Source of the DNA: Campylobacteraceae bacterium
GTDB taxonomy: Bacteria; Campylobacterota; Campylobacteria; Campylobacterales; Campylobacteraceae
Length of the DNA: 64,000 nucleotides
NCBI GenBank assembly: GCA_012519705.1
Contig: JAAYPR010000051.1
Location: 423-64,422, forward strand
Direction: 5' to 3'
Under the pieces are notes generated by a model. The model was not told where the DNA came from. It ran no database searches and saw only the letters and a list, made by a program, of their open reading frames with translations. Shown piece after piece: positions 11,598 to 56,101 of the stretch (position 1 is the first letter of the stretch; each line of letters starts with the position of its first letter). The translations under genes and the position numbers were made by a program.

Positions 11598-13653
11598 TCT
11601 AAAAGTAGTTCATAAAAGCAAAAATAGAGTTAGATTTATCCACTCAGGTCTTGATAAAAATAGTGATGTCGGGGCTTTTATAGAAAGAGTTTCAAACATA
11701 GATGGTGTTAAAAGCGTTAGAGTGAATAAGGCTATCCAAAGCGTGACGATTATCTATATTTTAGATAGTTATAGCTCTATTTTAGATGAAATTTCAAATT
11801 TAGAAGTTCCAAAGTTAAAAAGCGTTGATGAGGTAAGTAAAGCCCCTATTTATAGAGCTGGGGCGGCACTTGCTTTAATGCCTTTTATAGATAACAATAA
11901 CGCAAATAGCATAATTAGCTTAGTTGCAGCTTATCCGCTTTTAAAAGATGGTTTAAAAGAGCTTCTTAGCAGTGGGCTTACATCTGAAGTTTTAGAAGCT
12001 ATGGCGGTTGGAATTTCCCTATCAAGAAACGATTATCTAGCAGCAAATAGCACAAACTTGCTTCTAAATATCGGCGAATATATGGAAGAGACTACAACCC
12101 ATAAAAGCGATGACTTGATAAAAGCTTTAGCAAAACCTGGAGTTGAGAGTGCTTGGGTTGAAGAGAGTGCTAATGGTAAAGTTGAGCTTATAAAAAAACC
12201 AACAGATGAGATAAAAGTTGGCGATATCGTTGTAGTAGGAGCTGGTGAGACTATCGCAGTTGATGGGTATATCATAGACGGAAGTGCTAGTGTAAATGAA
12301 GCGTCCATGACAGGCGAGGCAACAAGTATCAACAAAAAGCACGGTGATAGAGCGATGAGTGGAACTGTCGTAGAAGATGGTAAGATAAAAATTTGGGCTG
12401 AGCAAACAGGTGCTGATACGAGTACTGAAAGGATTAGAAAATATATCCAAAACTCACTCAATGAACGCTCAAACGTAGGCGAAAAGGCAGAAGAGTTAGC
12501 TGATAAGCTAGTGCCTATAACTTTGTCTCTAGCTGGACTTGCATATTTTCTAAACAAAGATATGGCAAGCGTGGCTTCTGTTTTACAGGCTGATTACTCA
12601 TGTGCTTTAAAGCTAGCTACTCCAGTTGCTTTTAAATCAAGCATAGCAAAAGCTGGAAGAGAGGGAATCCTAATAAAAGGTGCAAAATCCTTGGAAGAGT
12701 TAGCTAAAGCTGATACTTTTGTTTTTGATAAAACTGGAACGATTACAAAAGGGATTTTAGAAGTTGTAGATGTGATAAGCTTTGATGAGAAGTGGAGCAA
12801 AGAAAGCGTGCTAAATTTAGCAGCGAGTGCGGAAGAGCACTATTTCCACCCAATAGCCGAAGCAGTTGTAAGTGCGGCAAAAAACAAAGGCTTTGAACAT
12901 ATGCATCACGGTGAAGTTGAGTTTATCGTAGCTCATGGGCTTAAAACTGAGTTTGATGGTAAAGAAGTGGTTATCGGAAGTAGGCACTTTTTAGAAGATG
13001 ATGAGAAAATCTCATTTGAGCCTTTTAGAGATGAGATAAAAACTCAAATAGATAGTGGATATACTCTTTTATATATCGGATACGATAAAAAGCTTTTGGG
13101 CATCATAACTATGAAAGATGAGATAAGAAGTAGTGCTAAAAAAACCATCTCTAAGCTAAAAAGTTTAGGAGCAAAAGAGATTATCATGTTAACAGGAGAT
13201 ATCGAAGAGAAGGCTAACGAAGTAGCAAACGAGCTTGGCATTGACAAAGTATATGCAAATATGCGTCCAACAGGCAAAGCAGAGGTTATAGATGAGCTTG
13301 TAAAAAGCGGTAGAAAAGTTGTGTTTTGTGGGGATGGGATAAATGACGCTCCATCTTTAAGTAAGGCAAATGTTGGTATCAGTATGAAAAGAGGTGCTGA
13401 TATAGCAAGGGCAGTTTCTGATGTGAGTCTTTTAAGGGATGATATTTACGCGGTTGCTATGGTAAAAGAGTTAGCTAATAAAACTCTAAATTTAGTAGAT
13501 AGAAACTTTAAAGCAACAGTTGCTATAAACTCAGGAATTTTACTAGGTGCGACGTTAGGCAGACTTAGTCCGATAGCTACAGCGTTTTTACATAACGGTA
13601 CAACGATAGGGCTTTTACTAAATTCAATGAAAGGTGTTAAAATTCAGCATTAA
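11566..13653 (+). CDS. fezB: P1B-6-type ATPase, FezB-like (start uncertain, 11560-11581)
   Basis: TM4 ADYSCALKLATP (SCA, not CPC), DKTGT, EEHYFHPIA, GDGIND, C-terminal LHNGTT; CxxC-less HMA N-terminus. Confidence 0.72.
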   Translation: MQKQKLKPKANLKVVHKSKNRVRFIHSGLDKNSDVGAFIERVSNIDGVKSVRVNKAIQSVTIIYILDSYSSILDEISNLEVPKLKSVDEVSKAPIYRAGAALALMPFIDNNNANSIISLVAAYPLLKDGLKELLSSGLTSEVLEAMAVGISLSRNDYLAANSTNLLLNIGEYMEETTTHKSDDLIKALAKPGVESAWVEESANGKVELIKKPTDEIKVGDIVVVGAGETIAVDGYIIDGSASVNEASMTGEATSINKKHGDRAMSGTVVEDGKIKIWAEQTGADTSTERIRKYIQNSLNERSNVGEKAEELADKLVPITLSLAGLAYFLNKDMASVASVLQADYSCALKLATPVAFKSSIAKAGREGILIKGAKSLEELAKADTFVFDKTGTITKGILEVVDVISFDEKWSKESVLNLAASAEEHYFHPIAEAVVSAAKNKGFEHMHHGEVEFIVAHGLKTEFDGKEVVIGSRHFLEDDEKISFEPFRDEIKTQIDSGYTLLYIGYDKKLLGIITMKDEIRSSAKKTISKLKSLGAKEIIMLTGDIEEKANEVANELGIDKVYANMRPTGKAEVIDELVKSGRKVVFCGDGINDAPSLSKANVGISMKRGADIARAVSDVSLLRDDIYAVAMVKELANKTLNLVDRNFKATVAINSGILLGATLGRLSPIATAFLHNGTTIGLLLNSMKGVKIQH

Positions 13654-23823: not shown

Positions 23824-24131
23824 CGTCATTGCGAGCTTGCGTTAGCAAGCGTGGCAATCCATCAAAGACATTTTAAAGAATTTATAGAATTTCTACTTAA
23901 GAAAATTTTATAAAGAAATTCACAAAAGAAGAACCTTTAATTTAACTAAAAATTTTAACTTAAAAATTTAACAAAAAACACCTTAAATTTAATTGCAGTT
24001 TTATCCAAATGGATTTTACTTCGCTACGCTGCAGAAGCTTCAGCCTAAAGGACAACGCAGTGACGAGGTTAGTAGATATATTGTTGTAGGAAATTTAGGT
24101 CTAGATTACTTCACTGGCGTTTGTAATAACG
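23824..24131. repeat. CGTC-tagged REP-like palindrome cluster 1 (three copies)
   Basis: 23824-23860 (+) CGTCATTGCGAGCTTGCGTTAGCAAGCGTGGCAATCC; degenerate minus-strand copies at 24011-24065 and 24103-24131. Confidence 0.8.
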
Positions 24132-30798: not shown

Positions 30799-32088
30799 AT
30801 GGAGCAGCAAATTTTAGAAACACAGTTTGCATTTATGAAAATTATCAAAACTTTTGGTGTTGATAGTGTGAGCTATCTAGTCAAAATGGACTTTTATGCC
30901 ACGTTTTTGGCTGTTTGTTTAGTGCTATTTTTAGGTTCAGCTATCACGAAAAAAGTTCATTTTTTACAAAAATATAGCATCCCTATCCCCGTTACTGGCG
31001 GGCTTGTTGTCGCTATAGTTTTGTTTCTAACTCAGGTTTTATTTGATGTAAAAGTTGGCTTTGAGGAGAGCATTAAAAACCCTTTAATGCTTATGTTTTT
31101 TACTTCGGTTGGACTTGGTGCGGACTTTGCAAGTCTTAAAAAAGGCGGCAGGCTTTTAGTACTTTTTGCTATATCGGTTTGTCTATTTTTGTTCGTACAA
31201 AACGCAGTCGGCGTTGGTGTGATGACTTTAATGGGCGAAAACCCGCTTCTTGGGCTACTTGCAGGCTCTGTTACGCTAAGCGGTGGACACGGAACCGGAG
31301 CAGCGTGGGGAAACATCTTTGCAAATGCACCTTATAACTTCACTCCGGCTATCGAAGTAGCGATGGCTAGTGCGACTTACGGACTAATCGCTGGTGGACT
31401 TTTAGGCGGACCTATCGCTCAGCACTTAATCGTAAAGTACAACCTTAAATCAAACGAAGAGGATTTAGAACTCACAACGAGTGATAAAGTTTTTGCCGAG
31501 CCACAAAAAGAAAGGCTCATAACATCAGGCTCATTTTTGAGAAGTTTGGGGCTTTTTGCTTTGGCGATGTTTATAGGAACGACTATTTCAGCACTTACAA
31601 AAGGCTCTGCTCTGACTCTACCGACTTTTGTTTGGTGTCTTTTTTCGGGGATTATCATAAGAAACTCATTTTCTTACTTTAATATTCATCAAGTTTTTGA
31701 TAGGGAAGTTGGAGTTATAGGAAACGTAAGTCTTGGACTATTTTTGGCGATGGCGATAATGACTCTAAACTTAGTTGAACTTACAAAACTAGCAGTTCCT
31801 TTAATCACACTTCTTGCTGTTCAGACTGTCGTTATGGCTCTGTATGCTAGATATATAACGTTTGCGATTTGTGGGCGTGACTATGATGCAGCGTGTTTGG
31901 TGGCGGGGCATTGTGGGTTTGGTATGGGGGCAACTCCAACAGCTGTTGCAAACCTTCAAGCAGTTACTTACAACTTCGGTCCTTCAACGATAGCGTTTAT
32001 CGTAGTTCCGATAATGGGCGGGTTTATAGTTGACATTGCAAATGCTTTGACAATTCAGTCGTTTCTGTTTTTGCCTATTTTTAGGTGA
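30799..32088 (+). CDS. gltS: Sodium/glutamate symporter (true start may be downstream, e.g. MDFYATF)
   Basis: IPIPVTGG, FFTSVGL, LSGGHGTGAAWG, AGHCGFGMGATPTA. Confidence 0.92.
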   Translation: MEQQILETQFAFMKIIKTFGVDSVSYLVKMDFYATFLAVCLVLFLGSAITKKVHFLQKYSIPIPVTGGLVVAIVLFLTQVLFDVKVGFEESIKNPLMLMFFTSVGLGADFASLKKGGRLLVLFAISVCLFLFVQNAVGVGVMTLMGENPLLGLLAGSVTLSGGHGTGAAWGNIFANAPYNFTPAIEVAMASATYGLIAGGLLGGPIAQHLIVKYNLKSNEEDLELTTSDKVFAEPQKERLITSGSFLRSLGLFALAMFIGTTISALTKGSALTLPTFVWCLFSGIIIRNSFSYFNIHQVFDREVGVIGNVSLGLFLAMAIMTLNLVELTKLAVPLITLLAVQTVVMALYARYITFAICGRDYDAACLVAGHCGFGMGATPTAVANLQAVTYNFGPSTIAFIVVPIMGGFIVDIANALTIQSFLFLPIFR

Positions 32089-32098
32089 GTGATATAGC

Positions 32099-32413
32099 CG
32101 CCATTGCGAGGAGCGAAGTGACGAAGCAAGCCAATGAATAAAAGCTTAATAAATTTATAAGTTTTATGCTTGGAAAAATTTTGTATATGATTTTACAAAA
32201 ACTAACCATTAAATTTGGTTTAAAATTCAATTTAATGGATTGCCACGGCAACAAGTTGCCTCGCAATGACGGGTGGAGAGTGTTTTTTGTAATTTTGGTT
32301 TTAGAATTTTCTTTAAAATAATCACTAGATTGCCACGATTTTACTTCGTAAAATCTCGCAATGACGGATAGAGAGTGGATTGTCACGCTTGCTAACGCAA
32401 GCTCGCAATAACG
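32099..32413. repeat. CGTC-tagged REP-like palindrome cluster 2 (four copies)
   Basis: + copy 32099-32132; minus copies 32237-32271, 32327-32366, 32377-32413 (last is 35/37 identical to 23824-23860). Confidence 0.88.
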
Positions 32414-32487: not shown

Positions 32488-32859
32488 TTAAAACTGCCTA
32501 AAAATCAACATCCCCAAATAACATGCTAAAAGAGCAAGTCCGACGCTTAGAAAGATATTTACAAAAGCAAGGGCTAAGTCTCCCTTCATCATCATCTCTA
32601 AGTTCTCATAACTAAAAGTTGAAAATGTAGTAAGCCCACCTAAAAAACCTGGTATTAAAAACGAGCGAAGTTCAGGACTGAGCTTTACAGCGACACTCAT
32701 AAAAACGCCGATTAAAAACCCGCCCAAAACATTTACTATCATAGTTCCATAAGGGAAATTTGAACCAAAAGCTTTAAAAGAGTAAGTAGTTATTAGCACT
32801 CTTAAAATCGCTCCTAAAAACCCACCACAACCAACTAAAAAAAGGATTTTCAAACTCAC
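32488..32859 (-). CDS. crcB: Fluoride channel Fluc/CrcB
   Basis: GGFLGA..R, FPYGT..VN, GFLGGLTTFSTFS. Confidence 0.95.
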   Translation of the reverse strand: MSLKILFLVGCGGFLGAILRVLITTYSFKAFGSNFPYGTMIVNVLGGFLIGVFMSVAVKLSPELRSFLIPGFLGGLTTFSTFSYENLEMMMKGDLALAFVNIFLSVGLALLACYLGMLIFRQF

Positions 32860-33539
32860 TCCACAGGTTTTAAAATATATCCAAGGCTTTGGACATTAGT
32901 TAAATTTATACCATCAAGCTGTTTTTTAAGACGTAAAATCGCTGTATGAATCGCCCCAGTGGTAACACTTTTGCCATCATATGCGTAGTTTTCTATCATC
33001 TCATAGGTAACTAAATTTGAAAGATTGTAGCAAAAAAGCCAAAATATTGAGTTTTCTAGTTTTGTAAGGTAAATTTCCTTGCCATCTTTGAAAATTCTCT
33101 CTTTATTGAAATTCAGAGTTATAGACGGGGTTAAATTTAGAGTTTTAGTTTTGTTTTTTAGAGCTGCCATTATGACTGTGTTTTGCAAGTCTTCCATTGT
33201 AACTGGTTTTTTCATAAATGAAATCGCTCCTTTTTCTATGCTTTTAAAAAGGTTTTTATCACTGTCATAGGAAGTTATGACGATGAAGTTTTGGTCGGGT
33301 TTGAGTTTTAAAATTTCGTTCATCATATCAAAACCGTTTAAATTTGGCATTAATATATCAGTAATAACTATATCAACTCTATCTTGCTTGAATTTTTCTA
33401 ATCCATCAAGCCCGTCAACTGCCGTGATAAAAGACTCACAATGTTTCTTAAGTCCGTTTGAAATAGCCACTCTTGTTAGTTCGTCATCATCAACTAAAAG
33501 AACTCTTGTATTTTCTAAAACTTTTAATCTCTCATTCAT
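32856..33539 (-). CDS. OmpR-type response regulator (receiver plus winged helix)
   Basis: LLVDDD, ITDILMP phospho-Asp, FMKKP; C-terminal LTKLE...IHTAILRLKKQL...VQSLGY. Confidence 0.9.
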   Translation of the reverse strand: MNERLKVLENTRVLLVDDDELTRVAISNGLKKHCESFITAVDGLDGLEKFKQDRVDIVITDILMPNLNGFDMMNEILKLKPDQNFIVITSYDSDKNLFKSIEKGAISFMKKPVTMEDLQNTVIMAALKNKTKTLNLTPSITLNFNKERIFKDGKEIYLTKLENSIFWLFCYNLSNLVTYEMIENYAYDGKSVTTGAIHTAILRLKKQLDGINLTNVQSLGYILKPVE

Positions 33540-35194
33540 TTTTGCTCCATATTTTGTTTGATGGTTAGTTTAAAAATAGTTGGGTTTTTAGCTTGAAAAA
33601 GCTCGATATCTCCGCCAAGTTTATCTTGTGCGATAACTTTTGAAAGATACAGCCCTATGCCACTACCGTGCTTTTTAGTGCTTTTTTTGTATTTTGTAAA
33701 AAGTGTGCTTGGGTTTGAAACCCCATGTCCTGTATCTTTTACATAAATTTCCACAAACTCACCCTCAACTCTCGCTTCTATATAAATTCGCTTTTTTCTC
33801 TCTTTGTTTCTTAGTGCATCTTTTGAGTTTTGTAAAAGCACTAGTAAAATTTGCTGTAAAAAGCTCTCATTTGAGACTACTTTTATATTAAATTTATCGA
33901 TAAAAAGACTTATGCTGTATTTTGCAAAGTCCATTTGAAGAAGTTTTGTTAAATTTACAATAGCAGTGTATAAATCAAACTCGCTTATATCATCTTTAAA
34001 CTCATAGAAATTTCTAAAGCTCTCAACAGTTTCGTTCATTAACAGGGTTGATTTTATACAAAGGTCTAAATTTTCTAAAAGCTCCTCATCGCTTAAATCG
34101 CCACTATTTTTTTGATCTTTTGTGCTACTTAGCAGTAGTAAAGATGAGTTTAAAGGCTGTTTTAGCTGATGAGCGATAGATGCGATAAGCTCTCCTGTCT
34201 CGCTCATTTTAAGCTGATGAGAGAGGATAAACTCATACTCTTTTTGTTTTTTTAAGATTTTATTATGTATAAATGTGTGGATATAGTTTGAAAATATTAT
34301 GAGTAGTAGAAATAAAATCGTTAAAACAGTTCCGTTTTTTACTAAAATTTGTATAGTGCTATCAGTGATGACTTTTTCATCTATGCTAACTCCAACATAC
34401 CAGTTTACAAGGGGAATTTTAACTACTTCTATAAAGTTATCTTGGTATTTAAATATCCAGCCTTTACTCTCCTCTTTGGAGTTTAAAAAGCTCTGTTTTA
34501 AATTTGGATAGTTCTCTTTTTTAATCAAAGATGAGATAATCTCCCCATCTTCATCAAAAAGGTAAGCATTATCAACAAAAGGATGAATTTTAGGGCGAAT
34601 TTTTTGAAAAAACTCTGATGCGATAATCACCCCGCAAACTGAGCCTTCTGTAACGCTGTTTTCAAAGGTTGAGCAGATGTGGATAGTTCTAGTATTTAAA
34701 ATATCGTGATGGTTGACTATGGAGATACTGCTTGAGTTGTTTCCGCAGATTGACTTTTGAAACCAGCAGGTTTTCATCACGCTTTCAAGGTTTTCTATTT
34801 TTTCAAATTTATTATCAAAGATTAAAAAACCGTTTTCAAAAATGATTTGATAGTGGTCAAAAAACGGACTATCTTTATCTATAATGTTTGACTCTTTTAC
34901 AAACTCAAAACTCTCTTCTTCGCTGTAAGAGTTGGTAAAAAACTCTAAAAATGAAGCGAAGTTTTCAATGCTTTTTATCCGAGTTGAGAGCCACTCATTT
35001 GTGCTAAAGCTTATCTCTTTTGAGATGGAGTTTCTAAAGCTAGAGCCTAAATTTAAGATTTCATTTTTGATTTGAAAATAGCTTAAGATAAAGGAGGAGG
35101 TTACCATTATGGTAAACAAAAAAAGGATTGCGTAAATTTTAGCATTTTCAAATTGATAAAACTTAGATAATAAGTTTCTAAATTTAACTCTCAA
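33536..35194 (-). CDS. Sensor histidine kinase with periplasmic Cache-like domain
   Basis: Two TM helices flanking a periplasmic region of about 240 aa; IAHQLKQPLN H-box, N-box, DTGHG, GSGIGL. Confidence 0.9.
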   Translation of the reverse strand: MRVKFRNLLSKFYQFENAKIYAILFLFTIMVTSSFILSYFQIKNEILNLGSSFRNSISKEISFSTNEWLSTRIKSIENFASFLEFFTNSYSEEESFEFVKESNIIDKDSPFFDHYQIIFENGFLIFDNKFEKIENLESVMKTCWFQKSICGNNSSSISIVNHHDILNTRTIHICSTFENSVTEGSVCGVIIASEFFQKIRPKIHPFVDNAYLFDEDGEIISSLIKKENYPNLKQSFLNSKEESKGWIFKYQDNFIEVVKIPLVNWYVGVSIDEKVITDSTIQILVKNGTVLTILFLLLIIFSNYIHTFIHNKILKKQKEYEFILSHQLKMSETGELIASIAHQLKQPLNSSLLLLSSTKDQKNSGDLSDEELLENLDLCIKSTLLMNETVESFRNFYEFKDDISEFDLYTAIVNLTKLLQMDFAKYSISLFIDKFNIKVVSNESFLQQILLVLLQNSKDALRNKERKKRIYIEARVEGEFVEIYVKDTGHGVSNPSTLFTKYKKSTKKHGSGIGLYLSKVIAQDKLGGDIELFQAKNPTIFKLTIKQNMEQK

Positions 35195-35272
35195 ATTCAG
35201 GCTCCTTTGTAAACTTTCTCTACTGCTTTGTTAAATAAAAAATAGTTTACTTAAGAAAACAGTATTTGATGA

Positions 35273-35297
35273 GCTAGGGAGCAACTCACTCCCTAGC
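35273..35297. terminator. Hairpin between assT2 and the kinase gene (weak U-tract on the minus strand)
   Basis: GCTAGGGAG / CTCCCTAGC. Confidence 0.45.
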
Positions 35298-35318
35298 AAA
35301 AAATGTGAAGATTTTATC

Positions 35319-37172
35319 TCACTTGCTTAAAGCTTTTTCTACGCTAAATGGGAAAGCTTGGTATCCGCTACTTCCTGACATATGGATTTTAAGTTCAAAT
35401 GATGGCTCTGTTGCATTCCATTCAAACTCACTTAGAGTTGGTGTTGGAGCACCAATTCTTGTGCCTGTCGCAAGGTCAAAGTCCATACCAGCTGTAGCTG
35501 AGTAAACAAGAACAGAGTCTTTGTCTTCATGATACTCTGTTAGTGAAGTAACAGGGCTATAGTAAGACTTGCCTCTTTGTTTTCCATATTCCCAAATTTG
35601 TTCAACCGTCATGTTTTTTTGATCAACTTTATAAATAACACCACGGCTATATTTCATATCTGGAAGTGCAGGTTGTTCAAACCCTCTACTGTCACCGTTG
35701 TCAAATACCGCTACAGTAACTACATCTTCATTTGTTTTGCTATCGATTACAAATGCTGTGTGCTGAGTATAAGTCCAGTCAAATCCACCTTCTGGGTTTA
35801 GATATCCAGGACATTTTGTATACTCATCTTCACATACGATTTTGTTACCTTCGCTATCAACTGGTTGAAGTAGGTATTGTTTAAACTCATCTTTCCAGCC
35901 TTTGTGAGCACCTAAAATCCACTTAACTTTTTTATCTCTACCGATTTTAATAACTGCGTTTTGGTGGCGAGATGAGATAACTATACTATCATCGCTTGGA
36001 TCGTGATCAACACTATTTACGTGAGCCCAGTTTCTACCAGCTCCACTTCCAACGATATCGCCAAATTTATCACTTGCATCAAGTGCTGCCAAGTCATCAT
36101 CACTTAGAGTTTGACCAGCTTGAGATGCGTCGATGTTTAGACAAACTGCACCTTGGTCAAGAACTTTTAGAACATTATCTCTATATGGATCTAAAATTTG
36201 GAAAAGTTTCCAGTCATCTACAACGTTCCCATCTTTATCTACTTCTATAATCACGTCTCTAACAGTTCTAACGTTTTTACCATCTGGGCGTTTTGTATTA
36301 GCTGAAGCTACGCGAAGTAGGTAGTTTCCGTTGTCCATATTGTCCATAGAGTGTGAGAAGTCAATATAGCCTTTTGGAAGAGGGCGGTTAAAAATCTCAC
36401 GTCCTAAGATGTCATATTTAGCATAGTTTTGTCCATATCCCCAAGTGATAGCCCCATCATCATTTTGCTTAAAGCCCATCATAACACCAGCATTAAACGC
36501 AGAGTGTAGGTTGTAAATAGGTGGATAGAACATATACCATCTAACTTCACCTTTTGTATCAAGGATATAGTTGTTTGGCTCAAAATTCCACTCTAGTGCA
36601 CCACCCATTGGGTTGTTCCAAACTAGCTCAACACCATTTGCACTTTTGCCACCTAAGTTGTTGATAAAGTAAAGTCTGTCTGCAAATTTTTCAGTTGGCT
36701 CTTTTGTGATTTCAATACTATCAAAAAATGCACTCTTTTGTCCTCTTAGTCCGCTTCCGTTAGACCAAACAGCAGGTGCGTAAATTTTATAATCTTCTTT
36801 GATTACTTCCTCTTGTCCTTTGTAAATTCTAGTATATTCAACCTCAACCGTGTTTTGATAGTCTGCATACATACCAAATACTGGAATTCCACCATGAGTT
36901 AAAAGATGCTTATTTGCAACTTTGTATTTGATTTCCTGACCACCTGGCTTTGGAACGATTCTAACAGTAACATCTTTGATATCATAGCCGCCATTTGAGA
37001 TTATCGCTGTAAGTGGTGCGATACCGTAAGGGTTTGCTTTAACTGCACCCAGTTTTCCTTGAAGAACATAGTCAGTTCTTGGACCGCTTGCTCCACCAAT
37101 TGCTAGAGCTTGTGTAGCACCTACAGTTAGTAACAAACCAGCAACAACTGCTGAACTTAAAATTTTTTTCAT
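35319..37172 (-). CDS. assT: Periplasmic aryl-sulfate sulfotransferase, copy 2
   Basis: Sec signal peptide; DFSHSMD, NWAHVNS, SSRHQ, TQHTAF catalytic motifs; Cys pair CEDEYTKC. Confidence 0.92.
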   Translation of the reverse strand: MKKILSSAVVAGLLLTVGATQALAIGGASGPRTDYVLQGKLGAVKANPYGIAPLTAIISNGGYDIKDVTVRIVPKPGGQEIKYKVANKHLLTHGGIPVFGMYADYQNTVEVEYTRIYKGQEEVIKEDYKIYAPAVWSNGSGLRGQKSAFFDSIEITKEPTEKFADRLYFINNLGGKSANGVELVWNNPMGGALEWNFEPNNYILDTKGEVRWYMFYPPIYNLHSAFNAGVMMGFKQNDDGAITWGYGQNYAKYDILGREIFNRPLPKGYIDFSHSMDNMDNGNYLLRVASANTKRPDGKNVRTVRDVIIEVDKDGNVVDDWKLFQILDPYRDNVLKVLDQGAVCLNIDASQAGQTLSDDDLAALDASDKFGDIVGSGAGRNWAHVNSVDHDPSDDSIVISSRHQNAVIKIGRDKKVKWILGAHKGWKDEFKQYLLQPVDSEGNKIVCEDEYTKCPGYLNPEGGFDWTYTQHTAFVIDSKTNEDVVTVAVFDNGDSRGFEQPALPDMKYSRGVIYKVDQKNMTVEQIWEYGKQRGKSYYSPVTSLTEYHEDKDSVLVYSATAGMDFDLATGTRIGAPTPTLSEFEWNATEPSFELKIHMSGSSGYQAFPFSVEKALSK

Positions 37173-37248
37173 TTTTTCTCCTTTTTGTAAGGTAAGAAAG
37201 CTAGCAAATTTAACATTTGCACCTAGGGTTTTGTTCGCCTATACTTGA

Positions 37249-37279
37249 ATTTTACTCCAAGTTCTCACAAAGTTCTAAT
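37249..37279 (-). promoter_or_regulatory. assT2 promoter: -10 TAAAAT plus tandem repeat box
   Basis: Plus strand GTTCTCAC-AAA-GTTCTAAT (37261-37279), 6 nt from ATTTTA (37249-37254). Confidence 0.65.
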
Positions 37280-37374
37280 AATTATATAAAAATATGCTTA
37301 AAATTTAAGATAAAAATTTAAATTACAAAGTTAAGATTTTAAAAAGTTAACTAAAAAAGAGATATATAGCATTA

Positions 37375-37392
37375 GGGGGCAAATTTGCCCCC
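37375..37392. terminator. GC-rich hairpin after assT1
   Basis: GGGGGCA-AATT-TGCCCCC. Confidence 0.55.
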
Positions 37393-37422
37393 CCTGCAAG
37401 GAAAAATACGTTACAAGCTTTA

Positions 37423-39249
37423 TTACTTACTTAAAGCTTTCTCGATACTAAATGGCCATGCTTGGTAACCCATAGCGTTGGTCATTACGATTTCAACAGC
37501 TGGCTCTGTTTCACCCCATCTAAACTCGTTGATGTGTGGGCTTGGAAGACCTGTTGGGTTTCCTGTAGCGATGTCAAACTGCATTCCAGCAACAGCTGAG
37601 TAAGCAAATACTGAGTTTTTGTCTGCTTGGTATTCTGTTAGAGATGTAACTGAGCTATACCAGTCAAATCCTCTTTCTTTTCCATACTCCCAAACTTGTT
37701 CAACTGTCATATTCTTTTGGTCGATTTTGTAAACAACCGCTCTTGAATACTTCATAGTTGGAAGTGCTGGTTGAGTCATACCTCTACTATCACCGTTGTC
37801 AAAAGCACTTACATAGATGATATCGCCTTTGCTTAACTCATCGATTTTAAATGCTGTATGTTGTGTCCATGTAAAGTCGAAGTCTGAGTTTTCACAAACA
37901 CCTTTTTCGTTACAATTGATTTTGTTTCCTTGGGCGTCAATTGGTTGTAAAAGTTTGCTTTGGAACTCTTCTTTCCAGCCTTCACTTGCACCAAGTATCC
38001 AAGTAACTTCTTTGTTTCTACCGATTTTAATGATAGCGTTTTGGTGTCTTGAGCTTAGGATGATACTATCATCTTCTGCGTCGTGATCAACACTGTTTAC
38101 GTGTGCCCAGTTTCTTCCTGGTCCAGAACCCACGATATCGCCAAACTGATCATTTGTATCCATAGCTGCTAACTCATCTTCACTTAGAGTTTGTCCACCC
38201 ATTGAAGCGTCGATGTTTAGACATACCGCACCTTGGTCAAGAACTTTTAGAGCTACGTCTCTATATGGATCTAGCATCTCATATAGTCTCCAGTCATCAA
38301 CAACATTACCATCTTTATCAACTTCAACGATAACGTCTCTTACTGTTCTAACGTTTTTACCGTCATTTCTCTTTAGGTTTGCGTTTGCAACTCTTAGGAA
38401 GTAGTTACCGTTTGGACTATCATCCATTGAGTGTGAGTAGTCAACGTAACCTGCTGGTAACTCTCTGTTGAAAATCTCTCTACCCATGATGTCGTATTTA
38501 ACATATCTTTGTCCATATCCCCAAGTGATAGCACCGTCATCATTTTGCTTAAAGCCCATCATAACACCAGCGTGGAATGCCGAGTCAAGCTTATAGATAG
38601 TTGTAGCATCTAAGAACCATCTAATCTCACCTGTTGTATCCACGATGAAGATTTGTGGGTCATAGTTCCACTCTAACGCACCACCCATTGGGTTGTTCCA
38701 TACAACTTTTGTACCTTTTCCAGTTTTGTTTTGGAAGTTGTTTACAAAGTAAAGTCTGTCTTTGAAGTCATCATCAACTTTTACAACTTCGATTTTGTCA
38801 AAGAACACGCCTTTTTGTGAAGCGTGACCTGATGTTGGTCCATAAACTGGTGGTGCATAAAGAGTATAAGTTTCGTTAACTTTTTCTTCAACACCTTTGT
38901 ATGTTTTTGTATAGCTAACTTCTACTTTGTTTACATAGTCAGGATATAAGCCAAATACTGGAATACCACCATGTGTGCCAAGTTCGCCGTTTGCAACATC
39001 GTATTTAATCTCTTGGCCACCTTCTTTTGGCACGATTCTAACAGTCGCGTCTTTTATGCTATATCCACCATTTTTGATAACAGCTGTTAATGGAGCTATA
39101 TCATATGGGTTCATAACAACTTCACCGATTACACCTTGAACAGCGTAGTCAGTTCTTGGACCACTTGCTCCACCAATCGCTAGAGCTGAAGTAGCACCTA
39201 CAGTTAGCAACAAACCAGCAACAACTGCTGAACTTAAAATCTTCTTCAT
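37423..39249 (-). CDS. assT: Periplasmic aryl-sulfate sulfotransferase, copy 1
   Basis: Same catalytic motifs (DYSHSMD, NWAHVNS, SSRHQ, TQHTAF); Cys pair CNEKGVC. Confidence 0.92.
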   Translation of the reverse strand: MKKILSSAVVAGLLLTVGATSALAIGGASGPRTDYAVQGVIGEVVMNPYDIAPLTAVIKNGGYSIKDATVRIVPKEGGQEIKYDVANGELGTHGGIPVFGLYPDYVNKVEVSYTKTYKGVEEKVNETYTLYAPPVYGPTSGHASQKGVFFDKIEVVKVDDDFKDRLYFVNNFQNKTGKGTKVVWNNPMGGALEWNYDPQIFIVDTTGEIRWFLDATTIYKLDSAFHAGVMMGFKQNDDGAITWGYGQRYVKYDIMGREIFNRELPAGYVDYSHSMDDSPNGNYFLRVANANLKRNDGKNVRTVRDVIVEVDKDGNVVDDWRLYEMLDPYRDVALKVLDQGAVCLNIDASMGGQTLSEDELAAMDTNDQFGDIVGSGPGRNWAHVNSVDHDAEDDSIILSSRHQNAIIKIGRNKEVTWILGASEGWKEEFQSKLLQPIDAQGNKINCNEKGVCENSDFDFTWTQHTAFKIDELSKGDIIYVSAFDNGDSRGMTQPALPTMKYSRAVVYKIDQKNMTVEQVWEYGKERGFDWYSSVTSLTEYQADKNSVFAYSAVAGMQFDIATGNPTGLPSPHINEFRWGETEPAVEIVMTNAMGYQAWPFSIEKALSK

Positions 39250-39358
39250 TTTTTCTCCTTATGGTAAAATTAACTAAATACCTTAAGCCAAAAACAACTA
39301 CGAAGTAATTTATCGTAGCTCTCTTTATGGAGACTTTGCTGCTTTTTAGCTTGGAGAG

Positions 39359-39390
39359 ATTATATAAAAGAGTTCTTACGAAGTTCTCAC
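39359..39390 (-). promoter_or_regulatory. assT1 promoter: -10 TATAAT plus tandem repeat box
   Basis: Plus strand GTTCTTAC-GAA-GTTCTCAC (39372-39390), 7 nt from ATTATA (39359-39364). Confidence 0.75.
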
Positions 39391-39679
39391 AAATTTATTA
39401 AATATATATTAAATTGAAAATAAAAGAAAAAATAAATAAAAAGTTATAATAAATAAATTTAAATTATAAATTTTAAAGTGAGAACGAGGTTATATATATG
39501 AGAAATTTAGGGTGCTTTAACAAATTTTTCTTTTAAAGAGATAATTATAGAAGCTATTGGTATAAAATTTTTTTAAAACAAACTATCAGGTGGTTAATCA
39601 AAGGAAAAGTATATAGTGTATATTTAAATTGATGAAGTTAAAAAGATAAACTATAGGCTAAAAATACTCTAAAGCAGGA

Positions 39680-39703
39680 CTAGGGAGTAAGTTTACTCCC
39701 TAG
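39680..39703. terminator. Hairpin after dsbI
   Basis: CTAGGGAGTAA / TTACTCCCTAG. Confidence 0.55.
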
Positions 39704-39740
39704 AGAAAATTTTTGTTTAACAGTTTTTTGTGGAGAATAC

Positions 39741-40418
39741 TCAGTCTGACATTACGTCATTAGCTGTCGAAATTATCCAGCTAACTAACATCGCAACCAG
39801 ACAAACTAGTGCAACTACATACGCTAAAAGCGTACAAATTGACATATCCATAAATTGGAACTTTGGTATTAGATACCAGCCATTGCTATACAGATCTGTA
39901 AAGAACGTTTGGATGCCATTTAACTCTACTCCTGTTGGAACAACTGGAGCGTCATATCCACAATCCCCTGTTGGTTTAAACCAATCAGGCCATTTATCAG
40001 CAAGCATAACTTCTATGCCTAAGAAGTAAAAGTGTGGATCTGTTGAACATCCTTGCATACCCATCATAGCAAATGGATCATCGCTGTGAACAGCTTTGTG
40101 AATACCGTGTAGTTTTACACTAAATAGTATCCCAATAACTGCACCATAAATCGCTAAAAAATACCCTATAAGTTTTGCAACTATTTCTTTTGGGTTAATC
40201 GCTGCAATAACACCGCCGATTACCATTAAAAACATTGAGTATCTAATATACACACACTGTTCGCACGGTAGCATATATAGATAGTTTTGAAAGAAACTAT
40301 GTGCTAGAATAATTAGTGATAGCATAACTACTGCCATTATTATCCATAACGGTCTTTTGTTTTGCCATCTAGCTATAGTTTCAATTGGCGAACTTTTTAA
40401 ATCTTGCCATAATTTCAT
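39741..40418 (-). CDS. dsbI: DsbB-family disulfide bond formation protein DsbI
   Basis: LPCEQCVYIR motif; second periplasmic Cys pair (GCS...TGDCG); adjacent to dsbL and assT. Confidence 0.9.
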   Translation of the reverse strand: MKLWQDLKSSPIETIARWQNKRPLWIIMAVVMLSLIILAHSFFQNYLYMLPCEQCVYIRYSMFLMVIGGVIAAINPKEIVAKLIGYFLAIYGAVIGILFSVKLHGIHKAVHSDDPFAMMGMQGCSTDPHFYFLGIEVMLADKWPDWFKPTGDCGYDAPVVPTGVELNGIQTFFTDLYSNGWYLIPKFQFMDMSICTLLAYVVALVCLVAMLVSWIISTANDVMSD

Positions 40419-40453
40419 ATTTTACAAACCCCTTTTTTTTGCCTGTTTAGAAA

Positions 40454-41143
40454 TTAATCCAATTTTCTTAGTTCTTGGATCATATCAACCATAGCATCAA
40501 TGCCTTTAATAGCGTTTGTTTTGATTAGGTATTTTCCATCTACAACAAATGCTGGAACTCCTTGAACTTTGCCTATCATATAAGCATCACCTGAGTTATC
40601 CATACCCCAAGTAGCTAAAATTTCCCCAACTCTTGCATCGTTAATTTTAGCTTCATAGTCAGCTTTGCTCATACCAATAGCGTCTAATGCTGTTTTTAAG
40701 AAAGCATCAACGTTTGCTTGGTTGCTTGCATCAGCTCCCCATCTCTCGCCTTTGTCATGGTATGCAATGTAAAGAGCAAATTTAGCTTTTTTGAAAGCTG
40801 AGTCTTCTGAAAGTAGGTTGTCTATACCGTTTTTCTCATCTTCAGCGATAGCTACTGCTAAAACTTGACTTCCATGAACGCCATATACACCTTTTGAAGT
40901 TAGGTGAAATGGAACAAATTTCATATCTGGAAGTTTAGCCATAACAGGAACTGTTACTGCTTGGTCAAATTTATAGCAGAATGGACAGTCATAACTAAAT
41001 GCTTTTATAACTGTGTTTTCAGCATTTGGGACAACTCTTTCTAGCTTAACATACTCTTTTCCCTCTGTTAGAGCATTTGCACTAACACCTATAAATAGAG
41101 CCGCAACGGCAACTGATTTTACAACACTTTTAAATAATTTCAT
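40454..41143 (-). CDS. dsbL: DsbA-family thiol:disulfide oxidoreductase, DsbL type, copy 1
   Basis: Signal peptide; SYDCPFCYK active site; VQGVPAF cis-Pro loop. Confidence 0.87.
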   Translation of the reverse strand: MKLFKSVVKSVAVAALFIGVSANALTEGKEYVKLERVVPNAENTVIKAFSYDCPFCYKFDQAVTVPVMAKLPDMKFVPFHLTSKGVYGVHGSQVLAVAIAEDEKNGIDNLLSEDSAFKKAKFALYIAYHDKGERWGADASNQANVDAFLKTALDAIGMSKADYEAKINDARVGEILATWGMDNSGDAYMIGKVQGVPAFVVDGKYLIKTNAIKGIDAMVDMIQELRKLD

Positions 41144-41170
41144 GTGTCCTCCTAGTAAAGATTTGACATA

Positions 41171-41202
41171 ATTATATTGAGCTGTTCTTACGAAGTCGTC
41201 AC
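41171..41202 (-). promoter_or_regulatory. dsbL1 promoter: -10 TATAAT plus tandem repeat box
   Basis: Plus strand GTTCTTAC-GAA-GTCGTCAC (41184-41202), 7 nt from ATTATA (41171-41176). Confidence 0.75.
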
Positions 41203-41280
41203 AATAAACTTAAATTAGTTTTAAAATAGTAAAATAATATAAAAAGTTAAAATAATAGTATAAAACTGAGTAATTAGTAG

Positions 41281-41311
41281 CTAAAACTAGGATTTAACCT
41301 CCTAGTTTTAG
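41281..41311. terminator. Hairpin after dsbL2
   Basis: CTAAAACTAGGA / TCCTAGTTTTAG. Confidence 0.55.
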
Positions 41312-41356
41312 TGGGTAAAATTTGAGCTATAGGTTGTAAATTTAAATTTATAGCTT

Positions 41357-42043
41357 TTAATCTAGCTTTCTAAGCTCTTTGATTGTGTTAACCATAGAGT
41401 CTATGCCAGTTATAGAGTTTGTTTGGATTAGGTATTTTCCATCTACAACAAACGCTGGAACACCTTGAACTTTACCTACCATATAAGCATCGCCAGCTGT
41501 ATCCATCCCCCAAGTAGAAAGAATCTCTTTAACTTTTTCATCTTTTAGTTTTTCTTCAAACTCAGCTTTACTCATACTCATAGCGTCTAATGCTGTTTTT
41601 AAGAAAGCATCAACGTTGGCTTGAACTTTCGCATCAGCTCCCCATCTCTCACCTTTGTCGTGATATGCCCCATATAATGCAAATTTAGCCTTTTTAAAAG
41701 TTGAGTTATTTGAAAGCAAGTCCACGCCATTTTTTTCATCTTCAGCTATAGCTACTGCTAAAACTTGGCTTCCATAAGCTCCATAAATGCCTTTTGTGGC
41801 TATATGGTAAGGGATAAATTTCATATCTGGAAGCTTTGACATAACAGGGATTGTTACTGCTTGATCAAATTTATAGCAAAATATACAGTCATAGCTAAAT
41901 ACTTTAATAACTGTGTTCTTGGCATTTGGGATAACTCTTTCTAGCTTAACGTAGTCCTTTCCTTCCGTTAGAGCATTTGCACTAACGCCTATAAACAGAG
42001 CCGCTGTGGCAACTAATTTTATAATTTTTCTTACTGTTTTCAT
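41357..42043 (-). CDS. dsbL: DsbL-type oxidoreductase, copy 2, with CIFC active site
   Basis: Close paralog of copy 1; SYDCIFCYK; VQGVPAF. Confidence 0.85.
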   Translation of the reverse strand: MKTVRKIIKLVATAALFIGVSANALTEGKDYVKLERVIPNAKNTVIKVFSYDCIFCYKFDQAVTIPVMSKLPDMKFIPYHIATKGIYGAYGSQVLAVAIAEDEKNGVDLLSNNSTFKKAKFALYGAYHDKGERWGADAKVQANVDAFLKTALDAMSMSKAEFEEKLKDEKVKEILSTWGMDTAGDAYMVGKVQGVPAFVVDGKYLIQTNSITGIDSMVNTIKELRKLD

Positions 42044-42069
42044 ATTTCCTCCTTTAAAAACATATTTTA

Positions 42070-42101
42070 ATTATACAGAATGGTTGTTGACAAGTAGTTA
42101 T
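42070..42101 (-). promoter_or_regulatory. dsbL2 promoter: -10 TATAAT plus degenerate tandem repeat box
   Basis: GTTGTTGA-CAA-GTAGTTAT (42083-42101), 7 nt from ATTATA (42070-42075); AAGT junction conserved. Confidence 0.5.
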
Positions 42102-42232: not shown

Positions 42233-43042
42233 TTAAAGTTTTCCACCCTCAACCACAACGCTTTCTGGGTCTATATCATCACCAAAAACAGGTTTGATTG
42301 TTGCGTCATAAGCTTTGTGGAAGAACTGCTCATCTCCAAGTTTAACGATTAGAGCGTTTATCCACTCAAGTAGTTCTTTATTTCCTTTTTTAACAGCTGG
42401 GGCGATAACATCGCTGTCGCCTAAAGTCTCAATCCCAACTTTAAACTCAGGATGATTTTTAACCCATGCAAAAAGGAAAGTGTTATCGTGAGCTATCGCA
42501 TCACCTCTGCCATCAACTGTAGCCGCAAAAGCCTCGCTGTGTTGGTCAAATTTAGTCATCTTAATATCTCTGTGGTTTTTTGTGAAGTAGATATCAGAAG
42601 TTGTGCCTTTTCCAACGATTAAAGTTTTGCCCTTTAAATCATCAACGCTTTTTACAGCACCATCTTTACTAGCAACGCCAATGCTTACTTTCATATACGG
42701 AAGTGCAAAGTCAACAACTTTTTCTCTCTCTTTTGTTTGAGTAAAGTTTGCTAAGATGATGTCAAGTTTGTCAGCTCTTAAAAAGTCAACCCTGTTAGCT
42801 GCTTCAACTAAAACATACTCAACCTTGTTTTCATCGCCAAAAAGTTCTTTTGCTATTCTTTTTGCAAAGTAAACATCATAGCCTTGATTTTTGCCGTTTT
42901 CATCGATATATCCAAATGGAGGCTTATCTCCAAAAACGCCTATTTTAACAAAGCCACGCTCTTTTATCTCGCTTAAAGTAGCAGCATTTAAAGCAGTGCC
43001 AAGTAGAACTAAACTTAAAAAAAGTTTAACGAATTTTCTCAT
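42233..43042 (-). CDS. Polar amino-acid ABC transporter substrate-binding protein (CjaA-like, cysteine/glutamine class)
   Basis: IGVFGDKPPFGY, GYDVYFAKRIAKEL, AANRV, FALPYMKV. Confidence 0.9.
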   Translation of the reverse strand: MRKFVKLFLSLVLLGTALNAATLSEIKERGFVKIGVFGDKPPFGYIDENGKNQGYDVYFAKRIAKELFGDENKVEYVLVEAANRVDFLRADKLDIILANFTQTKEREKVVDFALPYMKVSIGVASKDGAVKSVDDLKGKTLIVGKGTTSDIYFTKNHRDIKMTKFDQHSEAFAATVDGRGDAIAHDNTFLFAWVKNHPEFKVGIETLGDSDVIAPAVKKGNKELLEWINALIVKLGDEQFFHKAYDATIKPVFGDDIDPESVVVEGGKL

Positions 43043-43151
43043 GTTTTCTCCTTATTAATTGGTTTAATAACAACATTTAGAGTGAAAGTATAGCATTTTA
43101 AAATAAATTTTTAAAAAATAGCTTTAGAAAATTTATTGATTTTTTACACAT

Positions 43152-43346
43152 CATCATTCTAAGAAAGCGAAAGGGCGTAGCAATTCACACTACCAGTCGT
43201 TGCGAGATTTGAAGCGAAGCGGAAAATCGGGGCAATCTAGTTTTTGAAATTCTGGAGTGAATTTTAAGAAATTTGGTTTTCAAATTTCTCACAACAACAT
43301 ATCTACCGACATCGTCATTGCGAGGAGCGAAGCGACGAAGTAATCC
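43152..43346 (+). repeat. CGTC-tagged REP-like palindrome cluster 3 (three copies)
   Basis: Degenerate copy about 43152-43186; 43196-43237; 43313-43346 CGTCATTGCGAGGAGCGAAGCGACGAAGTAATCC (30/34 identical to 32099-32132). Confidence 0.82.
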
Positions 43347-43460
43347 ATTTGAATAAATTTTTAGTTAAATTTAATGGTTTTTGTTTATTAAATCCAGAGA
43401 TAAAATTTTTAAAAATACAAAATTTACTAAATTTATTAAAGTTAATTTTACTGTTTTTTT

Positions 43461-43582
43461 AAGGGGGCAGGGGCTTCAGAGTTGCGAGGGTCAGCCCCCG
43501 CCCCCTTAACAACCCCCACCCCTGACCGACGCACAAAGTTGCTGTGCTTCGCACAGGTTTTTATGTTTTTGCTACGCAAAAA
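43461..43582. other. GC-rich structured element: 15-bp hairpin, G4-capable tract and two GNA-triloop mini-hairpins
   Basis: AAGGGGGCAGGGGCT / AGCCCCCGCCCCCTT (14/15); C5-G-C5-TTAACAA-C5-A-C4 at 43495-43522; CTGTGC-TTC-GCACAG; TTTTTGC-TAC-GCAAAAA. Confidence 0.7.
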
Positions 43583-43659
43583 ATATTAAAACTATGACTT
43601 TAACAGACTTGGTTGTTTTGGCATACATAAATTTATCTGCTCTATAGTGAGAAATAAGC

Positions 43660-55901: not shown

Positions 55902-56101
55902 CGCTATTGTGAGCAACGAAGCGATGAGGTAACTACTTTCTAAGTGTCATTGCGAGACGGACGAAGTCCGGCGTGGCAATCTAGTTCTAAAAATTTAAAA
56001 GTTAATTTTAGTAAAATTTAGTTTTTAAAAGTTTGGTTCTTAATCAAATTTTAGTTTAATATCTAGATTGCCACGAAGTCTTACGACTTCTCGCAATGAC
56101 G
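55902..56101. repeat. CGTC-tagged REP-like palindrome cluster 4 (three copies)
   Basis: Degenerate + copy about 55902-55933; + copy 55945-55982; minus copy 56065-56101 (CGTCATTGCGAGAAGTCGTAAGACTTCGTGGCAATCT). Confidence 0.86.

Follow-up and report, generated by a model that had tools for sequence, protein, structure and literature searches.

A predicted sensor-controlled regulon for duplicated aryl sulfotransferase and DsbL genes in Campylobacter

Eight genes on the minus strand of a 64,000-nucleotide stretch of Campylobacter DNA (contig JAAYPR010000051.1 of assembly GCA_012519705.1, positions 423 to 64,422; hereafter the window) make up a locus that reads, in the direction of transcription from 42043 to 32488, dsbL2, dsbL1, dsbI, assT1, assT2, a sensor histidine kinase gene, a response regulator gene and crcB. 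We propose, with a probability of roughly 0.75, that the kinase and the regulator work as a two-component system dedicated to the adjacent periplasmic aryl-sulfotransferase module, whose genes it switches on, a proposal made from sequence comparison. The source is a 1.72-Mb Campylobacter genome, 99% complete, with a G+C content of 34.8%; its nearest named relative at the assT/dsb/kinase locus is C. portucalensis. An earlier description of the locus, made from the DNA letters of the window (the sequence-only reading), had named these eight genes, and their strand, coordinates and order are borne out by the present analysis. The same is true of its duplications: in pairwise alignment, AssT1 and AssT2 are 68% identical and DsbL1 and DsbL2 are 77% identical. 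That reading had also suggested an undescribed regulon with its own two-component system, and this suggestion gains support from an OmpR-type repeat that occurs, genome-wide, only in the promoters of assT1, assT2 and dsbL1-dsbI, and from the conservation of the linkage.

The putative operator is a 20-nucleotide (nt) tandem direct repeat with an 11-bp period, GTGAGAAC-TTC-GTAAGAAC, which ends 6-7 nt upstream of the -10 box in each of the three promoters. At assT1 a weaker third 11-bp unit lies upstream, the element as a whole spanning 39372-39402, and the overlapping upstream unit scores 14.0 bits. When the assT1 20-mer was used as the sole query against both strands of the whole 1.72-Mb genome, the only matches with four mismatches or fewer were the dsbL1 promoter (two mismatches) and the assT2 promoter (four); there were 22 matches at five mismatches and 156 at six. 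The exact pattern AGAAC-N6-AGAAC is found four times in the genome, twice at this locus, and the assT2 site is one of the exact matches. A position weight matrix (PWM), built from the same three sites that it recovers, gave them 24-30 bits in a genome scan, and the best site elsewhere reached 18.9 bits and had no -10 box at the right distance. The flanks of the operator are dissimilar among the three promoters, and the similarity is therefore motif-specific rather than a relic of promoter duplication. The tests that are independent of the matrix are the single-site genome search, the sites in relatives and the match across lineages.

None of the three operator promoters has a -35-like hexamer, the repeats occupying the -35 position. 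A pair of 11-bp direct repeats standing where the -35 would be is the classic layout for activation by OmpR/PhoB-family regulators, as at Pho boxes, and the geometry seen here fits that type. The resemblance to the PhoR/PhoB system takes in the fixed short distance to the -10 box and the winged-helix reader. The half-site, GTnAGAAC, bears no relation to that of the Pho box, and the dCache sensor of the kinase and the set of target genes are further points of difference. We infer that the regulator binds the repeat and activates rather than represses. In the converse arrangement, the regulator, phosphorylated or unphosphorylated, would sit on the repeats as a repressor and block RNA polymerase at -35 until the signal relieved it; binding could well occlude the polymerase, since the sites overlap the -35, and Campylobacter promoters often function without a -35 hexamer. 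What makes this version quite improbable is the distribution of the hexamer, which is missing from the regulated promoters but present in their unregulated counterparts: dsbL2 in this genome (TTGTCA) and the first assT gene in G001 and G007 (TTGACT), two genomes of the same genus that have four tandem assT genes and no ortholog of the kinase. An activator that stands in for the -35 contact, in the manner of Pho boxes, would be expected to leave such a pattern.

The repeat is also found in relatives that have the regulator. In locus L097, from the nearest relative, the promoter before dsbL-dsbI-assT reads TGTGATAACTCAGTGAGATT, 7 nt, TATAAT, and in C. portucalensis the promoter of an operon of dsbL, dsbI and five assT genes reads CGTGATAATTTAGTAAGAAT, 7 nt, TATAAT. 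In the C. concisus type, a related 22-nt element stands 6 nt before TAAAAT at both of two divergent promoters, one for assT and the other for dsbL-dsbI-kinase-regulator. This element shares with the sites of the window both its half-sites (GTGA-N7-GTnAG) and the 15 nt that separate the proximal half-site from the -10 box, although the regulators of the C. concisus type and of the window are only about 49% identical. The first assT promoter of G001 and G007 lacks the repeat and has TTGACT-17-TAGAAT instead. Promoters of the G017/L022 lineage, which has the kinase pair, do not carry the same repeat. An operator-like match with one mismatch that recurs in five C. concisus-type genomes was rejected as a regulon member, lying as it does inside a coding region.

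Linkage was surveyed by comparing the kinase alignment with one genome per species over 185,579 species, a search that relies on two peptide patterns. It yielded 68 Campylobacter species-level loci and one spurious match to a kinase core; within this survey the kinase family is found only in Campylobacter. At 66 of the 68 loci, assT and/or dsbL-dsbI adjoin the genes for the kinase and regulator (the kinase pair), in at least four gene orders, and this linkage is far beyond chance. In the C. concisus type, an operon of dsbL, dsbI, kinase and regulator genes is transcribed divergently from one assT, and another dsbL and another assT come after it. G017 has dsbL, dsbI and three assT genes, with sel1 and msrAB between these and the kinase pair, and in L097 dsbL-dsbI-assT is separated by three iron-transport genes from kinase-regulator-crcB. 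In L098 and L099 assT is followed directly by the kinase pair, as in the window. Synteny of assT with a kinase and regulator was the check that the sequence-only reading had set for itself, and the linkage is indeed kept in several diverged lineages and across rearrangements.

Were this adjacency incidental, the repeat would be bound by another regulator or be no operator at all, and the kinase pair would control crcB or the neighboring amino-acid ATP-binding cassette (ABC) transporter. There are observations of that kind: the C. portucalensis kinase and regulator (60% and 75% identity) are encoded beside the ABC transporter, with the dsbL-dsbI-assT operon on another contig; crcB overlaps the regulator gene in the window and in L097; and the Logan contig L103 has the kinase pair with no assT within about 4 kb. 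Yet the repeat is present where there is a regulator ortholog and absent from G001 and G007, which have none, its geometry is that of OmpR/PhoB sites, and the linkage has outlasted at least four rearrangements. Moreover, no site in the genome scores comparably by PWM, including the regions upstream of the ABC transporter and of crcB. We consider incidental adjacency very improbable.

The kinase consists of a transmembrane helix, a periplasmic dCache domain (about residues 40-287; window 34334-35077), a second transmembrane helix, a HisKA domain with the phosphoacceptor candidate H342, and an HATPase_c domain. The Pfam scores are 28.1 bits for HisKA and 44.4 bits for HATPase_c; the H, N, G1 and G2 boxes are present, and H342, N456, D487xGxG and G510-G514 are invariant across the kinase orthologs. 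In the regulator, the receiver domain (Response_reg, 76 bits) has D17/D18, D61, S89 and K110. Its Trans_reg_C score, 23 bits, is under the 26.2-bit cut-off, and the G017 ortholog scores 33.2 bits; full-length alignments run to the OmpR/PhoB-family structures DrrD, M. tuberculosis PhoP, PrrA and MtrA. The regulator is most likely a winged-helix member of that family.

A Foldseek search with the full-length kinase model returned matches to the kinase core only, and the sensor domain was modelled separately. The AlphaFold2 (AF2) model of the domain alone (mean local confidence, pLDDT, 82; predicted template-modelling score, pTM, 0.79) matched Mlp24, PctA and Mlp37 with template-modelling scores of 0.64-0.72, and Tlp3 and CtaA at about 0.7. 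A profile of the kinase family matches the ligand-binding domain of CtaA (E 4e-10), and Pfam dCache_1 is matched in kinase orthologs, with 53.5 bits in that of G002. The sensor is thus a complete dCache fold of the ligand-binding type, a stalk helix with two PAS-like modules, and it shares this double-PAS periplasmic dCache_1 architecture and its long stalk helix with PctA, Mlp24, Mlp37, Tlp3, CtaA and the kinase KinD. Unlike the PctA-type sensors, it lacks the residues that bind amino acids and has an invariant pair of cross-strand cysteines. In alignments to PctB and CtaA, the R-x-W-Y carboxyl motif is replaced by T/K/L-x-W-F (T in the window) and the Asp that contacts the amino group by Val. 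We take R-x-W-Y and this Asp to be the dCache_1AA amino-acid-binding motif, a definition that reportedly comes from Gumerov et al. 2022. Because these residues are replaced, the kinase is predicted not to be an amino-acid sensor. A word-based search with the sensor domain among 5.8 billion proteins found only eight relatives; the family is either rare or too divergent for such a search.

What the sensor binds may be related to the enzymes. A small aromatic ligand connected with AssT chemistry fits both the dCache fold and an enzyme-centered regulon, and our tentative candidate, at rather less than even odds, is an AssT substrate: either a phenolic acceptor or an aryl sulfate that serves as donor. 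A fuller version, in which the kinase would directly sense the natural donors or acceptors of AssT (host aryl sulfates, toxic dietary or host phenolics) and the cysteine pair would make the sensor a client of DsbL/DsbI in a feedback loop, is doubtful. On the nature of the signal there is a serious rival, which leaves the regulon as it is. The signal would be periplasmic thiol redox, a DsbL/DsbI-dependent disulfide between C174 and C187 reporting the capacity for oxidative folding, and the kinase would tune dsbL-dsbI, and assT as their client, accordingly, much as CpxAR induces dsbA. These two cysteines, under the sensor pocket, are invariant in all 16 kinase orthologs and in a paralogous family that is 27% identical, and the AF2 models place them directly opposite each other on strands 170-178 and 183-191, which form a beta-hairpin in the distal module; the two other periplasmic cysteines of the kinase are not conserved. 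Moreover, the kinase pair sits inside the dsbL-dsbI operon in the C. concisus group, and dsbI is the sole DsbB homolog of the genome. However, structural disulfides are common in periplasmic domains and need not be switches, and the paralogous kinase with the same pair is not linked to dsb genes. The sensor is a complete ligand-binding-type fold, and the strongest sites are those of the two assT promoters, as would suit a regulon centered on the enzyme. We regard a redox signal as unlikely. CpxAR of E. coli is a two-component system that raises dsbA expression, a global envelope-stress system without a link to AssT. The locus described here shares with it two-component control of periplasmic disulfide-forming enzymes, whereas the predicted regulon is limited to three promoters at one locus.

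The paralogous kinase and regulator just mentioned (27% and 38% identical; L017 6091-8374, L018 7637-9929) come last in an unrelated five-gene cluster that some genomes of the C. concisus type have. This pair was left out of the ortholog set because it is not linked to assT.

AssT1 and AssT2 are predicted to be aryl sulfotransferases that transfer sulfuryl groups from one phenolic compound to another independently of 3'-phosphoadenosine 5'-phosphosulfate (PAPS). Both match Arylsulfotran_N (about 99 bits) and Arylsulfotrans (453-464 bits, E 1e-135 to 1e-139), and AssT1 aligns over residues 39-587 with the E. coli AssT structure 3ELQ (E 1e-140); the expected architecture, an N-terminal Ig-like sandwich followed by a beta-propeller, is present. 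In the E. coli enzyme, His436 is the nucleophile and His252, His356, Asn358, Arg374 and Thr501 bind the sulfuryl group (PMC13426309). All six residues (H252, H356, N358, R374, H436 and T501, E. coli numbering) align identically between AssT1 and 3ELQ, and pairwise alignment with AssT1 indicates that AssT2 keeps them too. The disulfide pair that adjoins the catalytic histidine, C418-C424, is matched in AssT1 by C-x5-C and in AssT2 by C-x6-C, and in AssT2 the loop preceding this histidine is longer by 6 residues. This longer loop is the one feature that suggests a difference in specificity between the two enzymes. assT1 is the conserved core copy, with 80-82% identity to the first copy in relatives.

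The two DsbL proteins score 30.8 and 29.3 bits against Pfam DSBA (cut-off, 25.6). The CPFC motif of DsbL1 is that of E. coli DsbL, DsbL2 has CIFC, and both have GVPAF in the cis-Pro loop. DsbI has CEQC and a second cysteine pair. In this 99%-complete genome, dsbI gives the single PF02600 match and is the only DsbB-family gene; the pair is therefore not accessory to a housekeeping DsbA/DsbB system with a second PF02600 protein. Because dsbI has no other family member beside it, DsbL/DsbI probably doubles as the general oxidase of the cell, and a general role has been argued likewise for C. jejuni (PMC4152235). Only one further DSBA-like frame is found elsewhere in the genome, a 246-residue open frame scoring 26 bits (G000:C32:98885-99112), which may correspond to the dimeric oxidoreductase C8J_1298 of C. 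jejuni.

As we picture the dedicated two-component system, a periplasmic small molecule would bind the dCache sensor, and the kinase would autophosphorylate on H342 and pass the phosphate to D61 of the regulator. A head-to-tail regulator dimer would then occupy the two 11-bp direct repeats at -35 (consensus tGTGAnAAC-TTn-GTrAGAAc) and activate transcription of assT1, assT2 and dsbL1-dsbI in the manner of a Pho box. DsbL1, re-oxidized by DsbI, would form the AssT disulfide beside the catalytic histidine, and dsbL2, expressed from its own sigma-70-like and presumably constitutive promoter, would provide basal oxidase activity.

Several observations weigh against this picture. Roughly 60 of the 68 loci are closely related, of the C. 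concisus type, so that the independent lineages number about six to eight, and in two lineages, C. portucalensis and the Logan contig L103, the kinase pair is away from assT. The C. concisus pattern was derived from the two sites that it recovers, and in five genomes its exact matches are at those source sites only. When the DNA between assT and dsbL was compared across 39 C. concisus-type loci by phylogenetic footprinting, no footprints emerged, the whole region being too conserved. In this genome the kinase's own promoter has no operator site. Neither does that of dsbL2, in which the best candidate scores 2.7 bits by PWM. The sequence-only reading had counted dsbL2 in the regulon; with this score and its own TTGTCA-18-TAAAAT promoter, it was rejected as a fourth regulated gene. 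Finally, since dsbI is the sole DsbB homolog, the dsb genes may have a general role in protein folding, and AssT may be only part of what the system is about.

Table 1. Genes, predicted promoter elements and hairpins of the locus, in window coordinates.
Feature	Position	Strand	Basis and description
dsbL2 promoter	42064-42093	minus	Sigma-70-like TTGTCA-18-TAAAAT; promoter scan, 10/12 matches
dsbL2	41357-42043	minus	Pfam DSBA and Thioredoxin_4; CIFC active site; predicted DsbA/DsbL-type periplasmic thiol oxidase
Hairpin 3' of dsbL2	41283-41309		Similar to that of assT1; direct reading of sequence
dsbL1-dsbI promoter operator (putative)	41184-41203	minus	TGTGACGACTTCGTAAGAAC, 7 nt, TATAAT (41171-41176); PWM 28.9 bits
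dsbL1	40454-41143	minus	Pfam DSBA; CPFC active site; predicted DsbL-type thiol oxidase
dsbI	39741-40418	minus	NCBIfam DsbI NF003304, 322.7 bits (cut-off 212); predicted DsbB2-type quinone-linked membrane oxidase, partner of DsbL
Hairpin 3' of dsbI	39680-39703		Similar to that of assT1; direct reading of sequence
assT1 promoter operator (putative)	39372-39391	minus	TGTGAGAACTTCGTAAGAAC, 7 nt, TATAAT (39359-39364); PWM 30.4 bits
assT1	37423-39249	minus	Pfam Arylsulfotrans and Arylsulfotran_N; predicted periplasmic PAPS-independent aryl sulfotransferase
G+C-rich hairpin 3' of assT1	37374-37394	minus	GGGGGGCAAATTTGCCCCC; direct reading of sequence
assT2 promoter operator (putative)	37261-37280	minus	TATTAGAACTTTGTGAGAAC, 6 nt, TAAAAT (37249-37254); PWM 23.9 bits
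assT2	35319-37172	minus	Pfam Arylsulfotrans and Arylsulfotran_N; predicted paralogous aryl sulfotransferase
Hairpin 3' of assT2	35274-35296		Similar to that of assT1; direct reading of sequence
Sensor histidine kinase	33536-35194	minus	Pfam HisKA and HATPase_c
Response regulator, most likely OmpR/PhoB family	32856-33539	minus	Pfam Response_reg; full-length structure alignments
crcB	32488-32859	minus	Pfam and TIGR00494; fluoride channel

The hairpins in Table 1 suggest five transcription units: dsbL2, dsbL1-dsbI, assT1, assT2 and kinase-regulator-crcB. They were not flagged by the consensus terminator scan, because they have no T tract, and the termination that they would cause is a prediction; the consensus promoter and terminator scan as a whole barely exceeded a shuffled background. 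Within the last unit, the regulator start overlaps the kinase stop codon and the crcB start overlaps the regulator stop codon, and this second overlap makes it probable that crcB shares a transcript with the two-component genes. The genome has no other crcB. The whole window has no Rfam match, hence no fluoride riboswitch before crcB. The adjacency of regulator and crcB is limited to the window and L097 (crcB at 12345-12713), and is absent from C. portucalensis, L098, L099 and the C. concisus type. The functional membership that had been proposed for crcB loses ground on this account; the gene is probably a passenger.

The amino-acid ABC transporter is encoded upstream of the locus, its binding-protein gene ending at 42233. 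The 600-bp gap between its ATPase gene and the binding-protein gene includes a G-rich, hairpin-prone stretch at 43460-43590 (ggtgggggttgttaagggggcgggggctgaccc), unusual in AT-rich DNA. A dispersed repeat that resembles repetitive extragenic palindromic (REP) elements, GTCATTGCGAG-variable hairpin with compensatory stem changes-CGTGGCAATC, has about 95 copies on 30 contigs; in the window it is found at 32238-32410 (three tandem copies), 23827-23859, 55948-55981 and 56066-56098, with reversed related forms around 43130-43350. Because it spans these repeats and has no family match, the 101-residue open reading frame at 32081-32386 is probably not a gene.

Three observations concern assT loci in relatives. 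In the assT arrays of G001 and G007 (L090, G001:C1:78000-97999; L091, G007:C1:339000-358999) there is no dsbL/dsbI or kinase pair nearby, and the genes adjoining them encode FecR-like, OmpA-like and CHASE2-HD-domain signalling proteins. The spacers between assT genes contain a near-palindrome, TAGATAAAAGTCTCA...TGAGATTTCTATCTA, both in G001, which has no kinase pair (L090 8295-12318), and in G017, which has one (L022 15770-17814). It could be the site of another regulator or an RNA processing hairpin, and its occurrence in the kinase-less G001 is the reason why the G017/L022 palindrome was not counted as evidence. Upstream of the C. portucalensis kinase, about 2.2 kb with protein-like pieces and no long open frame (L021 1-2208) resembles the remains of a gene, in the position that assT occupies in relatives.

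Parts of this system are familiar. As in the assT-dsbL-dsbI clusters of uropathogenic E. coli CFT073 and Salmonella, the enzyme is a periplasmic, PAPS-independent AssT with the same catalytic residues and a cysteine pair beside the catalytic histidine, and a dedicated DsbL (CPFC) and DsbI are encoded beside assT (PMC4152235). Here, in contrast, AssT and DsbL are duplicated, the genes are divided among separate transcription units, a kinase and regulator are attached, and DsbI is the sole DsbB homolog rather than an extra one. In S. Typhi, control of the assT cluster lies with LeuO and H-NS rather than with a dedicated sensor (PMC4264507). C. jejuni, of the same genus, has in dsbA2-dsbB-astA and dsbA1 two DsbL-like DsbAs and a DsbB2-type oxidase clustered with AstA, one DsbA being encoded in the enzyme operon and the other by a monocistronic gene (PMC4152235, PMC3167755); a duplicated DsbL beside astA is thus already a known pattern (PMC4152235). 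It differs in having a single astA, no adjacent two-component system and promoters that respond to iron through Fur (PMC3167755), and no C. jejuni-group genome is among the 68 kinase-ortholog loci, in a survey resting on two peptide patterns. The statement of the sequence-only reading that no dedicated two-component system was known for such loci agrees with the literature: no paper that connects aryl sulfotransferases with a two-component system turned up in full-text searches of the library covered, where the only regulators reported for the module were LeuO/H-NS in S. Typhi and Fur/iron in C. jejuni. A 2026 review likewise mentions neither a two-component system nor a histidine kinase (PMC13426309). 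The new part is the sensor-controlled, amplified version of the locus; the assT-dsbL-dsbI module and the two-DsbL Campylobacter form were already known (PMC4152235).

In the gut, bacterial aryl sulfotransferases have drugs, hormones and dietary polyphenols as substrates, and according to the same review the physiological role and natural substrates of the PAPS-independent enzymes are still unknown (PMC13426309). A dedicated sensor with a compact and predictable regulon of three promoters that share a defined operator would turn the question of what AssT is for into an experiment: the activator of the kinase is likely to be the true substrate of AssT or a signal of it, and, if the kinase does sense AssT substrates, its ligand would reveal the long-sought physiological role of these enzymes. 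The system also offers a ready-made pair of inducible promoter and sensor. It is conserved in the surveyed C. concisus-type genomes, many of them metagenome-assembled, and may bear on how these bacteria handle phenolic compounds.

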